Source of the DNA: Escherichia coli
GTDB taxonomy: Bacteria; Pseudomonadota; Gammaproteobacteria; Enterobacterales; Enterobacteriaceae
Assembly (NCBI GenBank): GCA_025544715.1
Contig: GCA_025544715.1_4109.7
DNA length: 10,467 nucleotides
Direction: 5' to 3' (one strand)
How positions within the stretch are numbered: position 1 is the first letter of the stretch; the number at the start of each line of letters is the position of its first letter. A model generated the notes under the pieces. The model had not been told where the DNA came from and did no database searches. It was given only the letters and a program-made list of their open reading frames with translations. Positions 1,429 through 10,467 of this stretch are shown piece by piece. Position numbers and translations under genes: made by a program.

Positions 1429-1770
1429 TTATTCAAAATCTTCTGGACCGGACTGATAATCATCTTCACCGTATGCACTTTCTAACTTCTCGCCAGTGTG
1501 ATCATCAGTTAGTGAGTCATCCTCATAGTTCACGTCTACGCCCGTGATGTAAAACTGGCTATCGTCTGGATCATTGAAATTAATTTTCTGAATGTTTACA
1601 ATAACGGTATTGATGCCCAGGACACCGCCATCAGCAGTTACAAAGTACTGATATTTTTCACAACCGCCTGAATTGAAACCGTAATTGATTTCGGCCCGAC
1701 CATCATTTAAACGCAGTGCCTGAGCGATGATTTCGTTTTCAAAGTTAGATTGAGCAATTGCAATAGTCAT
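1429..1770 (-). CDS. hypothetical protein, acidic C-terminus (113 aa; track ORF trimmed to MTIAIAQSNF...)
   Basis: ATG 1770 with SD AAGGAAA 7 nt upstream, immediately downstream of stem-loop 1790-1808 and promoter (-10 1822-1827, -35 1844-1849); the track start at 1863 lies upstream of the promoter. Confidence 0.6.
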   Translation of the reverse strand: MTIAIAQSNFENEIIAQALRLNDGRAEINYGFNSGGCEKYQYFVTADGGVLGINTVIVNIQKINFNDPDDSQFYITGVDVNYEDDSLTDDHTGEKLESAYGEDDYQSGPEDFE

Positions 1771-1991: not shown

Positions 1992-2129
1992 TCATTTATT
2001 TTTAGCTTTTAGAATCGCCGCCTTTCGCGTCATGCCTTGCTTGATGTACTCCTTTACTTTCGCTTTACGTGCTTTCGCTTTATCTGCTTTCGTTTTAGGA
2101 GTACTGTAAATTATACCGTTAGGATTCAT
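1992..2129 (-). CDS. small Lys/Ala-rich basic protein (45 aa, MNPNGIIYSTPKTKADKAKARKAKVKEYIKQGMTRKAAILKAKNK)
   Basis: Translated by hand; ATG 2129 immediately follows the TAA of the upstream 29-aa ORF (TAAATG); GGTGA 6 nt upstream; stop TGA 1992-1994. Confidence 0.4.
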   Translation of the reverse strand: MNPNGIIYSTPKTKADKAKARKAKVKEYIKQGMTRKAAILKAKNK

Positions 2130-2219
2130 TTAAATCACCATAAAGAATAGATAGGTTACTAACAACGCCGCGATCAATGCACCGATCACCGCCGAACTGT
2201 AATAAGCCAATGATTTCAT
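2130..2219 (-). CDS. hydrophobic 29-aa peptide, predicted single transmembrane helix (MKSLAYYSSAVIGALIAALLVTYLFFMVI)
   Basis: Translated by hand; ATG overlaps the TGA of the upstream gene in an ATGA arrangement (translational coupling); uninterrupted hydrophobic core; no own SD. Confidence 0.35.
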   Translation of the reverse strand: MKSLAYYSSAVIGALIAALLVTYLFFMVI

Positions 2220-2368
2220 TTTTTAGCCTGAAAGTAATGTTTAATTTGTGCGGCGGTCAGTGCACAATTACGCAGGAAGTTTTCTGTATAACTGCGACGA
2301 GTACTGAAAGAGAATTGACCTTTGCCGTTACCGATAGTAACATCAAACCGAGCGTTGTATTGTTTCAT
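2216..2368 (-). CDS. hypothetical protein (50 aa; track ORF trimmed to MKQYNARFDV...)
   Basis: ATG 2368 with strong SD AGGAGA, downstream of stem-loop 2387-2406 and promoter (-10 2419-2424, -35 2441-2446). Confidence 0.55.
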   Translation of the reverse strand: MKQYNARFDVTIGNGKGQFSFSTRRSYTENFLRNCALTAAQIKHYFQAKK

Positions 2369-2386
2369 TTTGTTTCTCCTGTTATT

Positions 2387-2446
2387 GGGGAGAATCATTT
2401 CTCCCCTTCATGTAAAACATTATACAGTACTAAAAACTAATTGCAA
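2387..2446 (-). promoter_or_regulatory. promoter + 5' UTR stem-loop cassette
   Basis: TTGCAA 2441-2446, 16 nt, TATAAT 2419-2424; stem-loop GGGGAGAA/TTCTCCCC 2387-2406. Confidence 0.65.
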
Positions 2447-4839: not shown

Positions 4840-4871
4840 GGCGGTGCTAGTGGACTGGAATACTATAGACA

Positions 4872-4899
4872 CAAAAAAGCCCACTGTTTATAGTGGGCT
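4872..4899 (-). terminator. Rho-independent terminator
   Basis: minus strand AGCCCACT-ATAAAC-AGTGGGCT followed by UUUUUUGU; preceded by AGTACTGAATCA. Confidence 0.7.
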
Positions 4900-4920
4900 A
4901 GTGATTCAGTACTTTAATTG

Positions 4921-5554: not shown

Positions 5555-5608
5555 CTACTTTTTTAAAACTATTTTCAAAGTATTCTAGTACTACAATCCT
5601 ACAATAAC

Positions 5609-5635
5609 AAAAAAGCCCACTGCTTATAGTGGGCT
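5609..5635 (-). terminator. Rho-independent terminator (near-identical copy of the 4872-4899 module)
   Basis: AGCCCACT-ATAAGC-AGTGGGCT followed by UUUUUUGUUAUUG; preceded by AGTACTGAATCA. Confidence 0.7.
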
Positions 5636-5652
5636 AGTGATTCAGTACTAGA

Positions 5653-5952
5653 TTATAAACAGTTAATTACTCCTGTATGCGTTACTTTCTCCGTATCCAT
5701 GACAGTGACAGAACCACGTTTAGCACTGGCATCATAATAAATTGTTGTGCTACCTTTATCATCTTCTTCATGGAACGGGCCGTTTTTAAATGCTTCCGGC
5801 TGCAATTCCAGATCCTTTAAAACAATCTCGCCTGTACTTTCATTGGTCATTGCTACTGTGCACTGAATGAATTTATCACTACTCACATCTAACGATGCGT
5901 TAACAGCGAAAGAGGAAACAGATAAAGCCAGGGCGATGATTGCAATTTTCAT
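5653..5952 (-). CDS. predicted secreted/periplasmic protein with N-terminal signal peptide (99 aa, MKIAIIALALSVSSFAVNA|S...)
   Basis: ORF track; hydrophobic N-terminus with AxA-like cleavage motif; its promoter cassette lies across the N gap at 6127-6186; terminator 5609-5635 downstream. Confidence 0.6.
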   Translation of the reverse strand: MKIAIIALALSVSSFAVNASLDVSSDKFIQCTVAMTNESTGEIVLKDLELQPEAFKNGPFHEEDDKGSTTIYYDASAKRGSVTVMDTEKVTHTGVINCL

Positions 5953-6110
5953 TTGNNNNNNNNNNNNNNNNNNNNNNNNNNNNNNNNNNNNNNNNNNNNN
6001 NNNNNNNNNNNNNNNNNNNNNNNNNNNNNNNNNNNNNNNNNNNNNNNNNNNNNGTTAACAGCGAAAGAGGAAACAGATAAAGCCAGGGCGATGATTGCAA
6101 TTTTCATTTG
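5899..6110. repeat. exact 57-bp direct duplication flanking the N gap (5899-5955 = 6054-6110)
   Basis: identical strings GTTAACAGCGAAAGAGGAAACAGATAAAGCCAGGGCGATGATTGCAATTTTCATTTG on both sides; most likely overlapping contig ends, so the true sequence probably joins 5955 to 6111. Confidence 0.8.
5956..6053. other. 98-nt run of N (assembly or scaffold gap)
   Basis: unbroken N run; both flanks are an identical 57-bp sequence. Confidence 0.95.
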
Positions 6111-6504: not shown

Positions 6505-6537
6505 GTATTTTAATAAAAAGTATTTGAAAAATAATTG

Positions 6538-6566
6538 TTGACAACTGCATCCAGTACTGGCATAAT
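6538..6566 (+). promoter_or_regulatory. plus-strand sigma70-like promoter, divergent from the 6449-6504 cassette
   Basis: TTGACA 6538-6543, 17 nt spacer containing AGTACT, CATAAT 6561-6566; no plus-strand ORF downstream. Confidence 0.5.
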
Positions 6567-6572
6567 TACTAC

Positions 6573-6680
6573 ATAAAGACGAGATAGTCACTAACCCACC
6601 GGGTGCATAGATCCGTCTATTAAATGATTCAGTACTGAAAAAGTAACGGGGAGTTATTATCTCCCCGCGTTGTTATTTGG
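6573..6680 (+). ncRNA. candidate small non-coding RNA (~105 nt) of the conserved-element family
   Basis: own promoter 6538-6566, conserved element 6581-6618, palindrome TTCAGTACTGAA 6628-6639, terminator hairpin 6647-6667 with U tract; longest ATG ORF is 4 codons. Confidence 0.35.
6647..6680. terminator. bidirectional intrinsic terminator
   Basis: CGGGGAG-TTATTAT-CTCCCCG hairpin; U-rich on the plus side (GUUGUUAUUU) and on the minus side (UUACUUUUUC); ends both the plus small transcript and minus gene 6673..6894. Confidence 0.6.
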
Positions 6681-7545: not shown

Positions 7546-7785
7546 TTACATTCCAACCATTGCAGCACGGATCGCCGTAGTGCTATACTTGAATCCGTCC
7601 GGCGTTGTAGTAGTACCGTTGGCTTTTAATCTGCGGTACATACATTGGGCCGCAATATCTTTAGTTTTACATTGTGCGATGCAACTTTGAGCAAGCCGAT
7701 ATAATGACTCACCGTTATTAATCCACAATGAAACATTCCAATGAGTTTTGTTTTTGTGCCCGTTGTAAGTTTTAGTACTAGCCAT
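7546..7785 (-). CDS. hypothetical protein, paralog of 9143..9382 (79 aa)
   Basis: ORF track; SD GAGGA; cassette 7808-7869; shares GHKNKTHWNVSLWINN and an identical C-terminal 19 aa with 9143..9382. Confidence 0.65.
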   Translation of the reverse strand: MASTKTYNGHKNKTHWNVSLWINNGESLYRLAQSCIAQCKTKDIAAQCMYRRLKANGTTTTPDGFKYSTTAIRAAMVGM

Positions 7786-7807
7786 TTTTAAATCCTCGTT
7801 TGATTGA

Positions 7808-8671: not shown

Positions 8672-8708
8672 GTACTTTTTAAAAAATAGTTTTAATCACT
8701 TTTATATA

Positions 8709-8752
8709 GATACACTCCCGCACCCTATGGGCTATCGCCTTGTGTCCGGCTT
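8709..8752 (-). ncRNA. conserved element copy 4 (candidate small RNA or 5' leader)
   Basis: minus-sense ..GATAGCCCATAGGGTGCGGGAGTGTATCT behind promoter 8759-8787. Confidence 0.25.
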
Positions 8753-8758
8753 GTAAGT

Positions 8759-8787
8759 ATTATCTCACTAAGCCGGATAATGGTCAA
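8759..8787 (-). promoter_or_regulatory. sigma70-like promoter driving conserved element copy 4
   Basis: minus strand TTGACC (8782-8787), 17 nt, GATAAT (8759-8764). Confidence 0.35.
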
Positions 8788-8793
8788 GTACTT

Positions 8794-9060
8794 TTATTCA
8801 AGTACTGCAATCTTTTTAGTACTGTACACAGTAACACGGTTGCCCTTGCGGTCGTGCTTTATTTCTACCACGCGACGCGATACACTATCAGGACGCTTTA
8901 AAGCAGATAGCCAGTACTGAATAGATCGGGCTGTACTTCTCTTTACTACGGCCCAACGTTTACCACGTTCCGATTGTACGCCCATATCTTTAAACGTCGC
9001 CCCGTCCTGGCGTGCTGCAATCCGAGCAAGTTCACGCGTAGCAAAGTAAGTAATATTCAT
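8794..9060 (-). CDS. hypothetical basic protein (88 aa; trimmed to MNITYFATRELARIAARQ...)
   Basis: ATG 9060 with GGGG SD-like 9 nt upstream; the track start at 9114 lies upstream of the -10 (9097-9102). Confidence 0.5.
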   Translation of the reverse strand: MNITYFATRELARIAARQDGATFKDMGVQSERGKRWAVVKRSTARSIQYWLSALKRPDSVSRRVVEIKHDRKGNRVTVYSTKKIAVLE

Positions 9061-9096: not shown

Positions 9097-9121
9097 ATTA
9101 TAAAGTACTATCACCGTGCAA
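9097..9121 (-). promoter_or_regulatory. degenerate cassette promoter (spacer only 13 nt)
   Basis: TATAAT 9097-9102 and TTGCAC 9116-9121 are too close for a canonical sigma70 promoter; looks like a cassette with ~3 nt deleted from the spacer. Confidence 0.25.
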
Positions 9122-9142
9122 TAGTACTTTTAATCTATTCTC

Positions 9143-9382
9143 TTACATTCCAACCATTGCAGCACGGATCGCCGTAGTACTATACTTGAATCCGTCCGGT
9201 GTTTTATCTTGTCCAGTCTGTTCTAAAAATAGCATCATATGACGGGCCGCATCATTGCGATTAGTGTTAGCGGCAATAAAGTCCAGGGCCAACCGATATA
9301 ATGATTCATCATTATTAATCCAAAGGCTTACATTCCAATGAGTTTTATTTTTGTGACCTAAGAACATTTTTGATTTAGCCAT
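9143..9382 (-). CDS. hypothetical protein, paralog of 7546..7785 (79 aa)
   Basis: ORF track; SD GAGGA 9 nt upstream of ATG 9382; cassette 9406-9462; near-identical nucleotide sequence to 7546..7785 at both ends. Confidence 0.65.
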   Translation of the reverse strand: MAKSKMFLGHKNKTHWNVSLWINNDESLYRLALDFIAANTNRNDAARHMMLFLEQTGQDKTPDGFKYSTTAIRAAMVGM

Positions 9383-9405
9383 TTTAAAATCCTCTGAATT
9401 ATGGC

Positions 9406-9462
9406 GGGGAACTATTCCCCACCTGATAGAAAGTATTATACATTAATCGAATTACTTTGCAA
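9406..9462 (-). promoter_or_regulatory. promoter + 5' UTR stem-loop cassette
   Basis: TTGCAA 9457-9462, 16 nt, TATAAT 9435-9440; stem-loop GGGGAA/TTCCCC 9406-9420. Confidence 0.65.
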
Positions 9463-9465
9463 GTA

Positions 9466-9657
9466 CTATTTTTTGCAATATTCGTAAATCTCTTTATATC
9501 CGCTTAGTACTACATCGCCCCGCTGCAATGTGATAGATTCGAAATCATCATGATTAACAGCGTTTAACCAGTTTAAAGCCTTCATCTTATTTGGGTATTT
9601 TTGTTCGTGCTGGTTTTCCCCATCAATCAACCAGTACTGTATAATTATCTCACGCAT
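9466..9657 (-). CDS. hypothetical protein (63 aa)
   Basis: ORF track; AAGGG SD; 11 nt after the stop of 9669..10031 (operon partner); stop TAG just upstream of the next cassette -35. Confidence 0.55.
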   Translation of the reverse strand: MREIIIQYWLIDGENQHEQKYPNKMKALNWLNAVNHDDFESITLQRGDVVLSGYKEIYEYCKK

Positions 9658-9668
9658 ACATATTACCC

Positions 9669-10031
9669 TTATTCGTAAATCTTGCCACTGTCAGCCCATA
9701 CCAGGAAACGCGGCATATTATCCCATGCATCTTGTTTCAAGTTTAAACCGTGTAATACTTCGGTACTTTCCATTCCTGGTACTGGTTTACTATACACCGC
9801 AAACATTTCGCCCATGTACTGATAAGCCATCGTTAAATCACTGGCGATCATCTTATGGATCATCGCATCAAGCATCACAGTAGCGGCGTATTGTTCACGC
9901 TTAAGCGGTAACATTTTAATAAGTTCCCGATAAGCTGAAATATGAATTTTTACAGTCTCAGCGGGGAGATCTTTCATCTCTTCACGAAAGTTAACCAGGT
10001 TAGCAATGATTTTAGTGATTTGAGTCGCCAT
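9669..10031 (-). CDS. hypothetical protein (120 aa)
   Basis: ORF track; ATG 10031 downstream of imperfect stem-loop 10052-10076 and promoter (-10 TAGAAT 10087-10092, -35 TTGCAA 10109-10114). Confidence 0.65.
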   Translation of the reverse strand: MATQITKIIANLVNFREEMKDLPAETVKIHISAYRELIKMLPLKREQYAATVMLDAMIHKMIASDLTMAYQYMGEMFAVYSKPVPGMESTEVLHGLNLKQDAWDNMPRFLVWADSGKIYE

Positions 10032-10051
10032 CGTTTTAATCTCTTAAAAGT

Positions 10052-10114
10052 GAGTCGGGAGCGTATCCCCCGTCTCGATGTAAAACATTCTACACCTTTC
10101 CCAATACGTTGCAA
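10052..10114 (-). promoter_or_regulatory. promoter + imperfect 5' stem-loop
   Basis: TTGCAA 10109-10114, 16 nt, TAGAAT 10087-10092; imperfect hairpin 10052-10076. Confidence 0.55.
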
Positions 10115-10348
10115 GTACTTTCTACAAATACTTTTAAAATAGTTTTCTTTCTATATAGGAGTACTATCATCCAGTACTGAATCAATCAAGGGAGTACAAT
10201 TATTCAGTACTATACCGTAAAACGGCCTCAGTCGCTTTCTAACGCATTAATACACCTAAGCTATACATTTGCACCACTCCCAACAATCCAGGGCGTTACA
10301 GGCCGTTTAAACGCGTTAAATTATTTTCAATTATTTTGTTTTTAGCTA

Positions 10349-10376
10349 TTGACTCAGTACAGAAAAAGCGTATAAT
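10349..10376 (+). promoter_or_regulatory. plus-strand sigma70-like promoter driving conserved element copy 3
   Basis: TTGACT 10349-10354, 16 nt, TATAAT 10371-10376; transcript start ATTACTACATAGACG.. matches that of the 6538-6566 promoter. Confidence 0.5.
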
Positions 10377-10382
10377 TACTAC

Positions 10383-10428
10383 ATAGACGCGAGAAAGCGG
10401 ATACCCCAGGGGGTGCCGAGATCCGTCC
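10383..10428 (+). ncRNA. candidate small RNA, conserved element copy 3 (3' end undefined)
   Basis: own promoter 10349-10376; element GAGAAAGCGGATACCCCAGGGGGTGCCGAGATCCGTCC 10391-10428 alignable with 6581-6618. Confidence 0.3.
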
Positions 10429-10467
10429 AAAATTCATAAAATTTAAAAAGGATACACTCCCGCACCT

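Follow-up and report, generated by a model that had tools for sequence, protein, structure and literature searches.

A putative tricistronic early transcription unit of Asteriusvirus jumbo coliphages containing a conserved 29-codon gene

Are three open reading frames (ORFs) of 50, 29 and 45 codons, packed end to end within some 455 nucleotides (nt), genuine genes of a single transcription unit, and would the smallest of them encode a membrane peptide? The question is raised by positions 1992-2446 of a 10,467-nt stretch of DNA, here called the window (contig GCA_025544715.1_4109.7 of the Escherichia coli assembly GCA_025544715.1), where an earlier note, made from the sequence alone, had proposed a phage micro-operon of translationally coupled ORFs, named ORF1, ORF2 and ORF3 in the following. 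Building on the observed anatomy, coding status and conservation of the trio, we read it as a genuine tricistronic transcript of ~455 nt belonging to the terminal repeat of an Asteriusvirus. The polymerase that reads it is most likely the sigma70 enzyme of the host, which would place transcription early in infection. We assign this reading, together with the mechanism set out below, a probability of about 0.72.

A 901-nt stretch around the trio was compared with phage records and matched 37 of them, all Asteriusvirus, at 90-96% identity. The matching phages, PBECO4, 121Q, phAPEC6, G17 and fEgEco12 among them, are jumbo myophages that infect E. coli or Salmonella. Based on this identity we assign the window, all genes of which lie on the minus strand, to an Asteriusvirus jumbo coliphage of the PBECO4/121Q group. 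In vB_Ec-M-J the trio occupies 9968-10350, inside an annotated direct terminal repeat (1-21525), and in fEgEco12 it is found at 9106-9488, again within the direct terminal repeat, whose 20,993 bp were identified by PhageTerm and verified by restriction digestion (PMC13070987). For relatives whose ends are mapped, the repeat is ~21 kb long, with the trio ~9-10 kb in from the left end. In 10 records, those spanning both repeats, tblastn detected two copies of the trio.

The promoter, the three ORFs and both junctions between them were all confirmed on the minus strand at the positions given by the earlier note, which had left out the hairpin at the 3' end. The block is composed of the following features:

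2446-2419, minus strand: sigma70-type promoter; -35 element TTGCAA (2446-2441), 16-nt spacer with AGTACT, -10 element TATAAT (2424-2419); 10/12 consensus match
2406-2387, minus strand: stem-loop GGGGAGAAATGATTCTCCCC in the 5' untranslated region (5'-UTR); perfect 8-bp G/C stem, -13.9 kcal/mol
2380-2376, minus strand: Shine-Dalgarno sequence (SD) AGGAG of ORF1, spaced 7 nt from the ATG; -7.4 kcal/mol when paired with the 16S 3' end
2368-2216, minus strand: ORF1, 50 amino acids (aa), TGA stop at 2218-2216
2219-2130, minus strand: ORF2, 29 aa, MKSLAYYSSAVIGALIAALLVTYLFFMVI, TAA stop at 2132-2130
2129-1992, minus strand: ORF3, 45 aa, TGA stop at 1994-1992
1989-1962 (to 1955 with UUUU), minus strand: terminator-like hairpin; 12-bp stem with 4 G-C pairs, UUCG loop, then UUUU; -15.9 kcal/mol

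The trio promoter combines near-consensus hexamers with a spacer inside the 16-18 nt range of sigma70 promoters and is preceded upstream by an A/T-rich stretch. Both hexamers are identical in 25 relatives, variation being confined to the spacer. The promoter pattern occurs in 11 copies in the window against 0.07 expected, and a looser search returned 19 sigma70-type promoters on the minus strand of the window. Examples lie at 10114, 9462, 8671, 7869, 6972, 6504, 6186, 4187, 2675, 2446, 1414 and 1125, and nearly every small gene of the window is preceded by a sigma70-type promoter of its own. In the RaK2-like phage CBB, RpoD-like promoters cluster, in part on the terminal repeat, before short hypothetical genes, which was interpreted as a mark of the early region (PMC5259590). 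The setting assumed by the earlier note, a phage early region, fits the abundance of sigma70 promoters as well as the position inside the direct terminal repeat in vB_Ec-M-J and fEgEco12.

The 5' stem-loop begins ~6 nt past the inferred transcription start (~2412) and has the form GGGGAGAA-AUGA-UUCUCCCC in the RNA; in the DNA the right arm reads TTCTCCCC (GGGGAGAA-ATGA-TTCTCCCC). A G/C-rich hairpin ~12 nt past the -10 element accompanies 13 of the 19 minus-strand promoters, with stems that differ between copies and complementarity that is kept. In the alignment of relatives, substitutions in the trio stem-loop were found on both arms. A role as terminator was ruled out because no U-tract follows the hairpin, and an mRNA-stabilizing or regulatory element appears to be the better description. 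Judged by its recurrence, the promoter with its 5' hairpin looks like a 5'-UTR module common to the genes of the terminal repeat.

At the opposite end, 2 nt past the ORF3 stop, the terminator-like hairpin has the makeup of an intrinsic terminator, a G+C-containing stem-loop directly before a U-tract, though the tract is short (UUUU). Its stem is invariant in 24 of the 25 relatives, the loop alone being variable, and in the record of phage G17 its counterpart carries a terminator annotation. Bounded by promoter and terminator-like hairpin, and invariant as a block in 27 Asteriusvirus loci, the trio upholds the single transcription unit that had been proposed for it.

For the coding status of the three frames, the homologous stretch from 25 GenBank relatives and two metagenome contigs was aligned. 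The earlier note had named loss of the reading frames in close relatives as one outcome that would speak against the trio. ORF1, ORF2 and ORF3 are intact in 24 of the 25 relatives, and the exception, CMSTMSU, is an 'UNVERIFIED_ORG' record with many single-base indels, indicative of poor assembly. The in-frame ratio of nonsynonymous to synonymous polymorphism (pN/pS) was 0.08 for ORF1 (variable sites 4/2/15 by codon position 1/2/3), 0.20 for ORF2 (5/2/8) and 0.25 for ORF3 (10/8/25); the two shifted frames gave 1.05-2.7. Judged by these ratios, all three ORFs evolve under purifying selection as coding genes. The seven replacements seen in ORF2 (K/R, S/T, V/L, I/V, L/M, T/A and G/V) are mostly conservative, and its 29-aa frame was recovered by tblastn at full length and at least 89.7% identity in 35/35 matching phage records.

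ORF1 is correctly read as 50 aa, as the earlier note had it. A mechanical ORF list gives 60 aa, starting from an ATG at 2398 in the loop of the 5' hairpin, and this longer form was rejected because the extension is out of frame in 4/25 relatives and missing in distant homologs. An antisense ORF of 87 aa over ORF1, called as a coding sequence (CDS) in phage UE-S1, was discarded as a gene as well: start or frame is lost or a stop is gained in 5 relatives besides CMSTMSU, and its amino acid changes wherever the ORF1 change is synonymous. Annotation of the trio is uneven among the relatives. The UE-S1 record has the antisense CDS (L001 3261-3464) and omits ORF1 and ORF2, phage A4 carries the 60-aa extended ORF1 (L020 922-1104), and some records omit ORF3 too, or all three ORFs. 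The UE-S1 and A4 calls over ORF1 are, from the alignment, likely annotation errors. A 29-aa CDS corresponding to ORF2 is already present in the records of phAPEC6, E9.1, fEgEco12, WPEC3, WPEC5, JP4, SHEFM2K, SD-1_S14 and ELP-22; the annotations of many other relatives leave it out.

The spacing within the trio is fixed: the distance from the ORF1 start to the ORF2 start is 149 nt and that from the ORF2 start to the ORF3 start 90 nt in 27/27 Asteriusvirus loci. Upstream, a 48-aa cassette is absent from 121Q, PBECO4 and SD-1_S14, and an additional cassette stands between the 48-aa gene and ORF1 in WPEC5, ELP-22 and A4. Downstream, the neighboring gene is swapped in three phages. Compared across these genomes, the trio behaves as an invariant block while cassettes on either side come and go; the repeated promoter modules are likely the sites at which the flanking cassettes are exchanged.

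How the three cistrons would be translated can be judged from their starts. Anti-SD pairing of ORF1 amounts to -7.4 kcal/mol, other promoter-proximal genes checked lying mostly at -5 to -8. The ATG of ORF2 at 2219 overlaps the ORF1 TGA (ATGA) and the ATG of ORF3 at 2129 abuts the ORF2 TAA (TAAATG); both junctions are invariant in 24/25 relatives. ORF2 has no SD, with -2.5 kcal/mol as compared to an all-ATG background of -3.6 +/- 2.5 (longer anti-SD), and therefore probably relies on coupling, i.e., on termination-reinitiation after ORF1. ORF3 is preceded by an extended SD, UGGUGAU (-9.1 kcal/mol), inside the last codons of ORF2 (~2139-2133). Since it has this SD of its own, ORF3 can probably initiate independently and need not rely on coupling. 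In the folded transcript the ORF3 SD is partly paired (probability of being unpaired 0.1-0.2 at GGUGAUU). The tight coupling claimed for the whole trio is thus plausible for ORF2, where overlap and missing SD come together at an invariant junction, whereas ORF3 shares only the adjacency.

According to the tricistronic reading, transcription would start near 2412 and the 5' stem-loop would protect or regulate the mRNA. Ribosomes would load at the strong SD of ORF1 and reach ORF2 by termination-reinitiation at the AUGA overlap, tying ORF2 output to that of ORF1. The start of ORF3, just past the ORF2 UAA, would be aided by the extended SD, which ribosomes translating ORF2 would unmask, and transcription would end at the hairpin directly after ORF3. 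The products would be a soluble basic mini-domain of 50 aa, a single-pass inner-membrane peptide of 29 aa and a basic helical hairpin.

The 29-aa product had been described as purely hydrophobic. This holds for ~20 of its residues; they are preceded by a polar N-terminus, MKSLAYYSS. With a grand average of hydropathicity (GRAVY) of 1.80 and a best 19-residue Kyte-Doolittle mean of 2.73 (residues 11-29), ORF2 exceeds every other small coding-strand ORF of the window in hydrophobicity, and one hydrophobic segment of at least ~19 residues, as expected for a single-pass membrane protein, is present on the Kyte-Doolittle scale. A single-pass membrane peptide is thus plausible. A single Lys near the N-terminus is followed by no further charge, so that by the positive-inside rule the peptide would probably adopt an N-in/C-out topology in the inner membrane. 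Small residues recur every 3-4 positions (A10, G13/A14, A17/A18), a spacing that suits helix-helix packing. ORF2 was assigned to no PHROG family.

ORF1 has a far wider distribution than the trio. It encodes a basic (isoelectric point, pI, 10.2), soluble protein that matches phrog_7119 over its full length (E 7.3e-28; residues 1-50 align with positions 3-52 of the 52-position profile), and tblastn detected homologs in 178 phage records. Identity is 96-100% within Asteriusvirus (90-95% in one record), 54% in Klebsiella phages RaK2 and K64-1, 47-49% in rV5-like Vequintavirus including rV5 gp191, and ~46% in Certrevirus and Pectobacterium phages. The ORF1 profile found only 16 matches among 1.84 billion representatives, ~12 of them proteins of 54-85 aa, and a word-indexed protein search returned 3 relatives of ORF1 and 6 of ORF3. 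The family motif reads [VI]-T-I-G-N-G-x-G ... F ... S-Y-T ... L-T-x-x-Q-I-x-x-Y-F, and its I-G-N-G-x-G loop is invariant. Structure prediction returned a small beta-rich domain with a predicted local distance difference test (pLDDT) score of 91.6, a confidently predicted fold with a weak likeness to SH3. A match to Pfam PF25317 (SAM_SMF, the DprA SAM domain) stayed below the gathering threshold (20.1 versus 27 bits). Sub-threshold matches occurred in 8/15 family members, the best at E 3.6e-5, and are only a hint of a two-helix motif. PDB profile matches of ORF1 (DotG/IcmE, homeodomains) were weak, repeat-like or of generic-helix type and were rejected as functional evidence. None of the three ORFs gave an above-threshold match in Pfam, NCBIfam or PADLOC, defense, toxin and holin families included. 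Among the records with an ORF1 homolog, 16 (MG065635-MG065682; most ~135-143 kb, one 75.6 kb) are labeled 'Campylobacter phage', with identity and score as in rV5-like E. coli phages; these host labels look doubtful.

In two further lineages a hydrophobic ORF follows the ORF1 homolog. In the Logan metagenome contigs L030 and L031 (ORF1 72% identical), a 33-aa hydrophobic ORF, MKKWLMLVLTYSTITITAAVMAVLAVFLFFTLI, begins one base past the ORF1 TAA and has an AAGGA SD 8 nt upstream. The L030 peptide aligns gaplessly with the C-terminal 23 residues of the window ORF2, with a common ...LFFxxI-stop, and the score exceeds all but ~0.06% of composition-preserving shuffles (P~6e-4); a tblastn search of the phage collection returned no match for it. 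In RaK2, K64-1 and the metagenome contig L035 (ORF1 54% identical), a hydrophobic ORF of 38 aa, missing from the annotation, overlaps the ORF1 stop (TAATG) and also the start of the next gene (ATGA), and the RaK2 peptide resembles that of L030 (P~0.01). The third gene of both lineages encodes a protein of 101-102 aa (RaK2 ORF339) in place of ORF3. IMG/VR and metagenome scans added few loci. The arrangement of three ORFs, for which conservation in related phages had been proposed as a check, is therefore conserved within Asteriusvirus but not beyond. As ORF3 is confined to this genus and ORF1 occurs elsewhere alone or with other partners, the trio does not appear to be an ancient unit, nor, on the same comparisons, are ORF1 and ORF2 an obligate pair.

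Several observations weigh against a three-gene mRNA with a functional ORF2, or against a wider role of the pair. The selection signal of ORF2 comes from 15 variable sites only. The terminator has only four U and overlaps a second promoter-like site (TTGACT-17-TATTAT, 1982-1954), so that read-through is possible, and accessibility of the ribosome binding sites in the folded transcript does not discriminate between the models. A search of the literature on Asteriusvirus returned no transcriptomic, proteomic or functional data on ORF1-ORF3, and the genes went unmentioned in the papers checked. No hydrophobic ORF follows the ORF1 homolog in rV5, CR3, KP13-7 or the locus L039. In L038 (Logan SRR7532985 contig, 180-520), the ORF1 homolog, 54% identical, is coupled to an unrelated soluble protein of 59 aa (MIYGYISFGGSFIETSKTERGAK...) through a stop/start junction, GCTAAAAAATGA, identical to that of the window; this locus has promoter modules as in the window, and its next gene is a homolog of window 1429-1770. 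Direct comparison of the window ORF2 with the RaK2 peptide gave no significant similarity in the shuffle test, and the 5' halves of the RaK2 and L030 hydrophobic ORFs coincide with promoter-like TTGAyn-17-TAyTAT sequences.

The last two points are at the heart of the alternative that survives best, although we consider it unlikely: that the mini-ORFs of RaK2 and L030 are not homologous to ORF2 and represent T-rich intergenic promoter DNA that is open by chance, ORF2 of Asteriusvirus being a young, genus-confined gene. The promoter-like sites, TTGACA-17-TATTAT in RaK2 and TTGATG-17-TACTAT in L030, lie inside the mini-ORFs, and the three RaK2-type sequences, ~99% identical, are too alike for a selection test. 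The shuffle statistics linking the window to L030 and L030 to RaK2 argue for homology, as does the stop/start overlap or adjacency with ORF1 that is kept in all three lineages. Even if the mini-ORFs were unrelated, ORF2 of the window would still stand as a coding gene.

It is less probable still that ORF2 serves solely as a relay, carrying ribosomes from ORF1 to ORF3 and unmasking the ORF3 SD while its peptide has no function. The tight packing of the trio, the missing SD of ORF2 and the partly paired ORF3 SD within its last codons would suit such a role. A relay, however, predicts no constraint on the amino acids, and the pN/pS of 0.20, the conservative replacements and the 29 codons maintained in 35 records contradict this; moreover, a related hydrophobic peptide trails ORF1 in L030/L031, where ORF3 is absent.

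We give equally little credence to a membrane-damaging peptide that would depolarize or permeabilize the host in the manner of a type I toxin or a holin/antiholin. Size and composition of ORF2 are like those of small hydrophobic E. coli toxins, such as the 29-aa TisB, and GRAVY as well as the single segment of transmembrane (TM) length are compatible with it. Yet no toxin, holin or defense family was matched in Pfam, NCBIfam, PHROGs or PADLOC. The features that define type I toxins (Hok, TisB, Ibs, Ldr) were not found for ORF2, with no Pfam, NCBIfam or PADLOC match and no Rfam match in the region, nor was an antisense RNA gene identified. As to holins, the peptide ends on hydrophobic ...FFMVI without a charged tail, its neighbors are small hypothetical genes with no endolysin or spanin nearby, and an early-type promoter in the terminal repeat would be odd timing for membrane damage.

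Hardly credible, finally, is an additional membrane-anchored ORF1-ORF2 fusion made by a -1 slip on the A-run GCU AAA AAA UGA before the ORF1 stop, for which speak the six A, the -1 frame of ORF2 relative to ORF1 and the GCTAAAAAATGA junction kept in L038 despite only 54% identity of its ORF1, since the heptamer does not conform to the canonical X XXY YYZ pattern, L030 has its downstream ORF in the +1 frame and the RaK2 junction TAATG has no A-run, so that no single frameshift model fits all, the A-run is explained by the Lys-Lys C-terminus as a trait of the ORF1 family, and no family member with a fused TM tail was found. All four alternatives are weaker than the tricistronic mRNA.

For the biological role of ORF2, the earlier note had proposed host-membrane or superinfection functions as candidates. 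Tentatively, the peptide might act on, or pack against, a host inner-membrane protein during takeover or exclusion, possibly together with ORF1. A further-reaching proposal, which we regard as quite unlikely, is that ORF1 pairs with a micro-TM peptide in a two-part module conserved among RaK2-like jumbo phages. Coupled stoichiometry would bring the mini-beta-barrel with its IGNGxG loop to an anchor or partner of 29-38 aa, both would act jointly on a host inner-membrane machine within the first minutes, in takeover or superinfection exclusion, and the third gene (ORF3 or ORF339) would tune this action.

ORF3 is rich in Lys and Ala (14 K+R, pI 10.55), matches phrog_29913 over its full length (E 3.1e-32, positions 1-45 of 45) and was found in Asteriusvirus only. 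In its model (pLDDT 80.5) the N-terminus is disordered and two helices, at 14-30 and 35-44, are joined by a QGMT turn, which predicts a genus-specific basic helical hairpin. A single PDB profile match (E 0.32) was too weak and was rejected as functional evidence. For the N-terminal third there are two strongly diverged alleles, belonging to the 45-aa and 47-aa forms of ORF3 and separated by a 6-nt indel and ~15 substitutions within 30 nt; the comparison took in L007, L010-L014, L018 and L022, and the remainder of the gene is nearly identical. Such mosaic alleles suggest recombination. In a 44-aa form, a 1-nt difference near the stop results in ...KAKK instead of ...KAKNK.

Comparison with known systems places the trio in familiar company. 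The PHROG families of ORF1 and ORF3, matched in full length and with high significance, are both listed as 'unknown function', and the GenBank counterparts are hypothetical proteins (121Q gp286 and gp287, phAPEC6 gp521-gp519, fEgEco12 g021-g023). The pre-early (first-step-transfer) region of phage T5 lies in a terminal repeat and holds small genes, mostly without known function, some of which act in host takeover. The phage of the trio is alike in having a long direct terminal repeat, with the trio inside it, densely filled with very small genes under strong promoters of the host type. It differs from T5 in that no sequence relationship was found and in the promoter and 5' hairpin provided for nearly every small gene; to our knowledge, two-step DNA entry has not been described for Asteriusvirus. 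Termination-reinitiation at overlapping stop/start codons (ATGA, TAATG) is well known in bacterial and phage operons. The ATGA overlap, the missing SD and the invariant junction of ORF2 resemble it, so that coupling is predicted for ORF2, whereas ORF3 departs from it with its strong extended SD.

Small bacterial inner-membrane peptides such as KdpF (29 aa), CydX (37 aa) and AcrZ (49 aa) are accessory subunits or regulators and often share an operon with their partner membrane protein. ORF2 falls into their size class, with a predicted single TM helix and small residues spaced along it; unlike them it has small soluble proteins as neighbors, and there is no homology. PhiNM1 Gp11, a phage early membrane protein, inhibits MurG and DivIC in Staphylococcus aureus (PMC11237401). 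As a predicted small membrane peptide from a phage early region, ORF2 is comparable, and Gp11 offers a plausible model of action. The two share no sequence similarity, host and phage type are different, and ORF2 is much smaller and nearly devoid of a soluble portion.

Further features of the window were recorded. No tRNAs were found, and no Rfam match in the trio region. At 1870-1990 and 8680-8800 on the minus strand and at 6530-6650 and 10345-10465 on the plus strand, a promoter-like site is followed by a ~50-nt element with the core TA(G/A/C)CCCAnnGGGTGC. By their sequence these four are candidates for short non-coding transcripts or protein-binding sites; they matched neither Rfam nor tRNA. 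Over the copy just downstream of ORF3, several relatives' records call a CDS of 33 aa, probably spurious, whose start lies within the terminator hairpin. Two minus-strand genes of 79 aa (7546-7797 and 9143-9394) are paralogs, with 95% identity in a terminal stretch of 64 nt and 78% in a further 107 nt. The stretches 4854-4913 and 5590-5649, 87% identical, each contain a strong terminator hairpin, AGCCCACT-loop-AGTGGGCT, with TTTTTTG behind it, together with its flanks. A run of 98 N at 5956-6053, between perfect 57-nt direct repeats (5899-5955 and 6054-6110), falls within, or repeats, the beginning of a small gene on the minus strand whose N-terminus resembles a signal peptide (MKIAIIALALSVSSFAVNA...). 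The run with its repeats looks like a scaffold gap or an assembly artefact.

Part of this was already known. PHROGs already includes ORF1 and ORF3, the whole trio stands as hypothetical proteins in several GenBank records, and arrays of tiny early genes as well as small phage membrane peptides are well known, the arrangement of the trio being typical of phage early regions. New here are the sequence-evolution evidence for the 29-aa gene, the probable dependence of ORF2 on coupling, the recurrence of a hydrophobic ORF after ORF1 in two further lineages and a confident fold model of the ORF1 family. The trio neither opens nor settles a major question. It is a clean, comparatively validated case of a gene of fewer than 30 codons for a predicted membrane peptide in a jumbo phage, one that many annotation pipelines leave out, and the genus alignment could aid the correction of Asteriusvirus annotations. 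The three small proteins would be cheap targets for expression or toxicity screens directed at host takeover, and with ORF1 they include a member of a compact, confidently folding family that is spread across RaK2-like and rV5-like coliphages considered for therapy.

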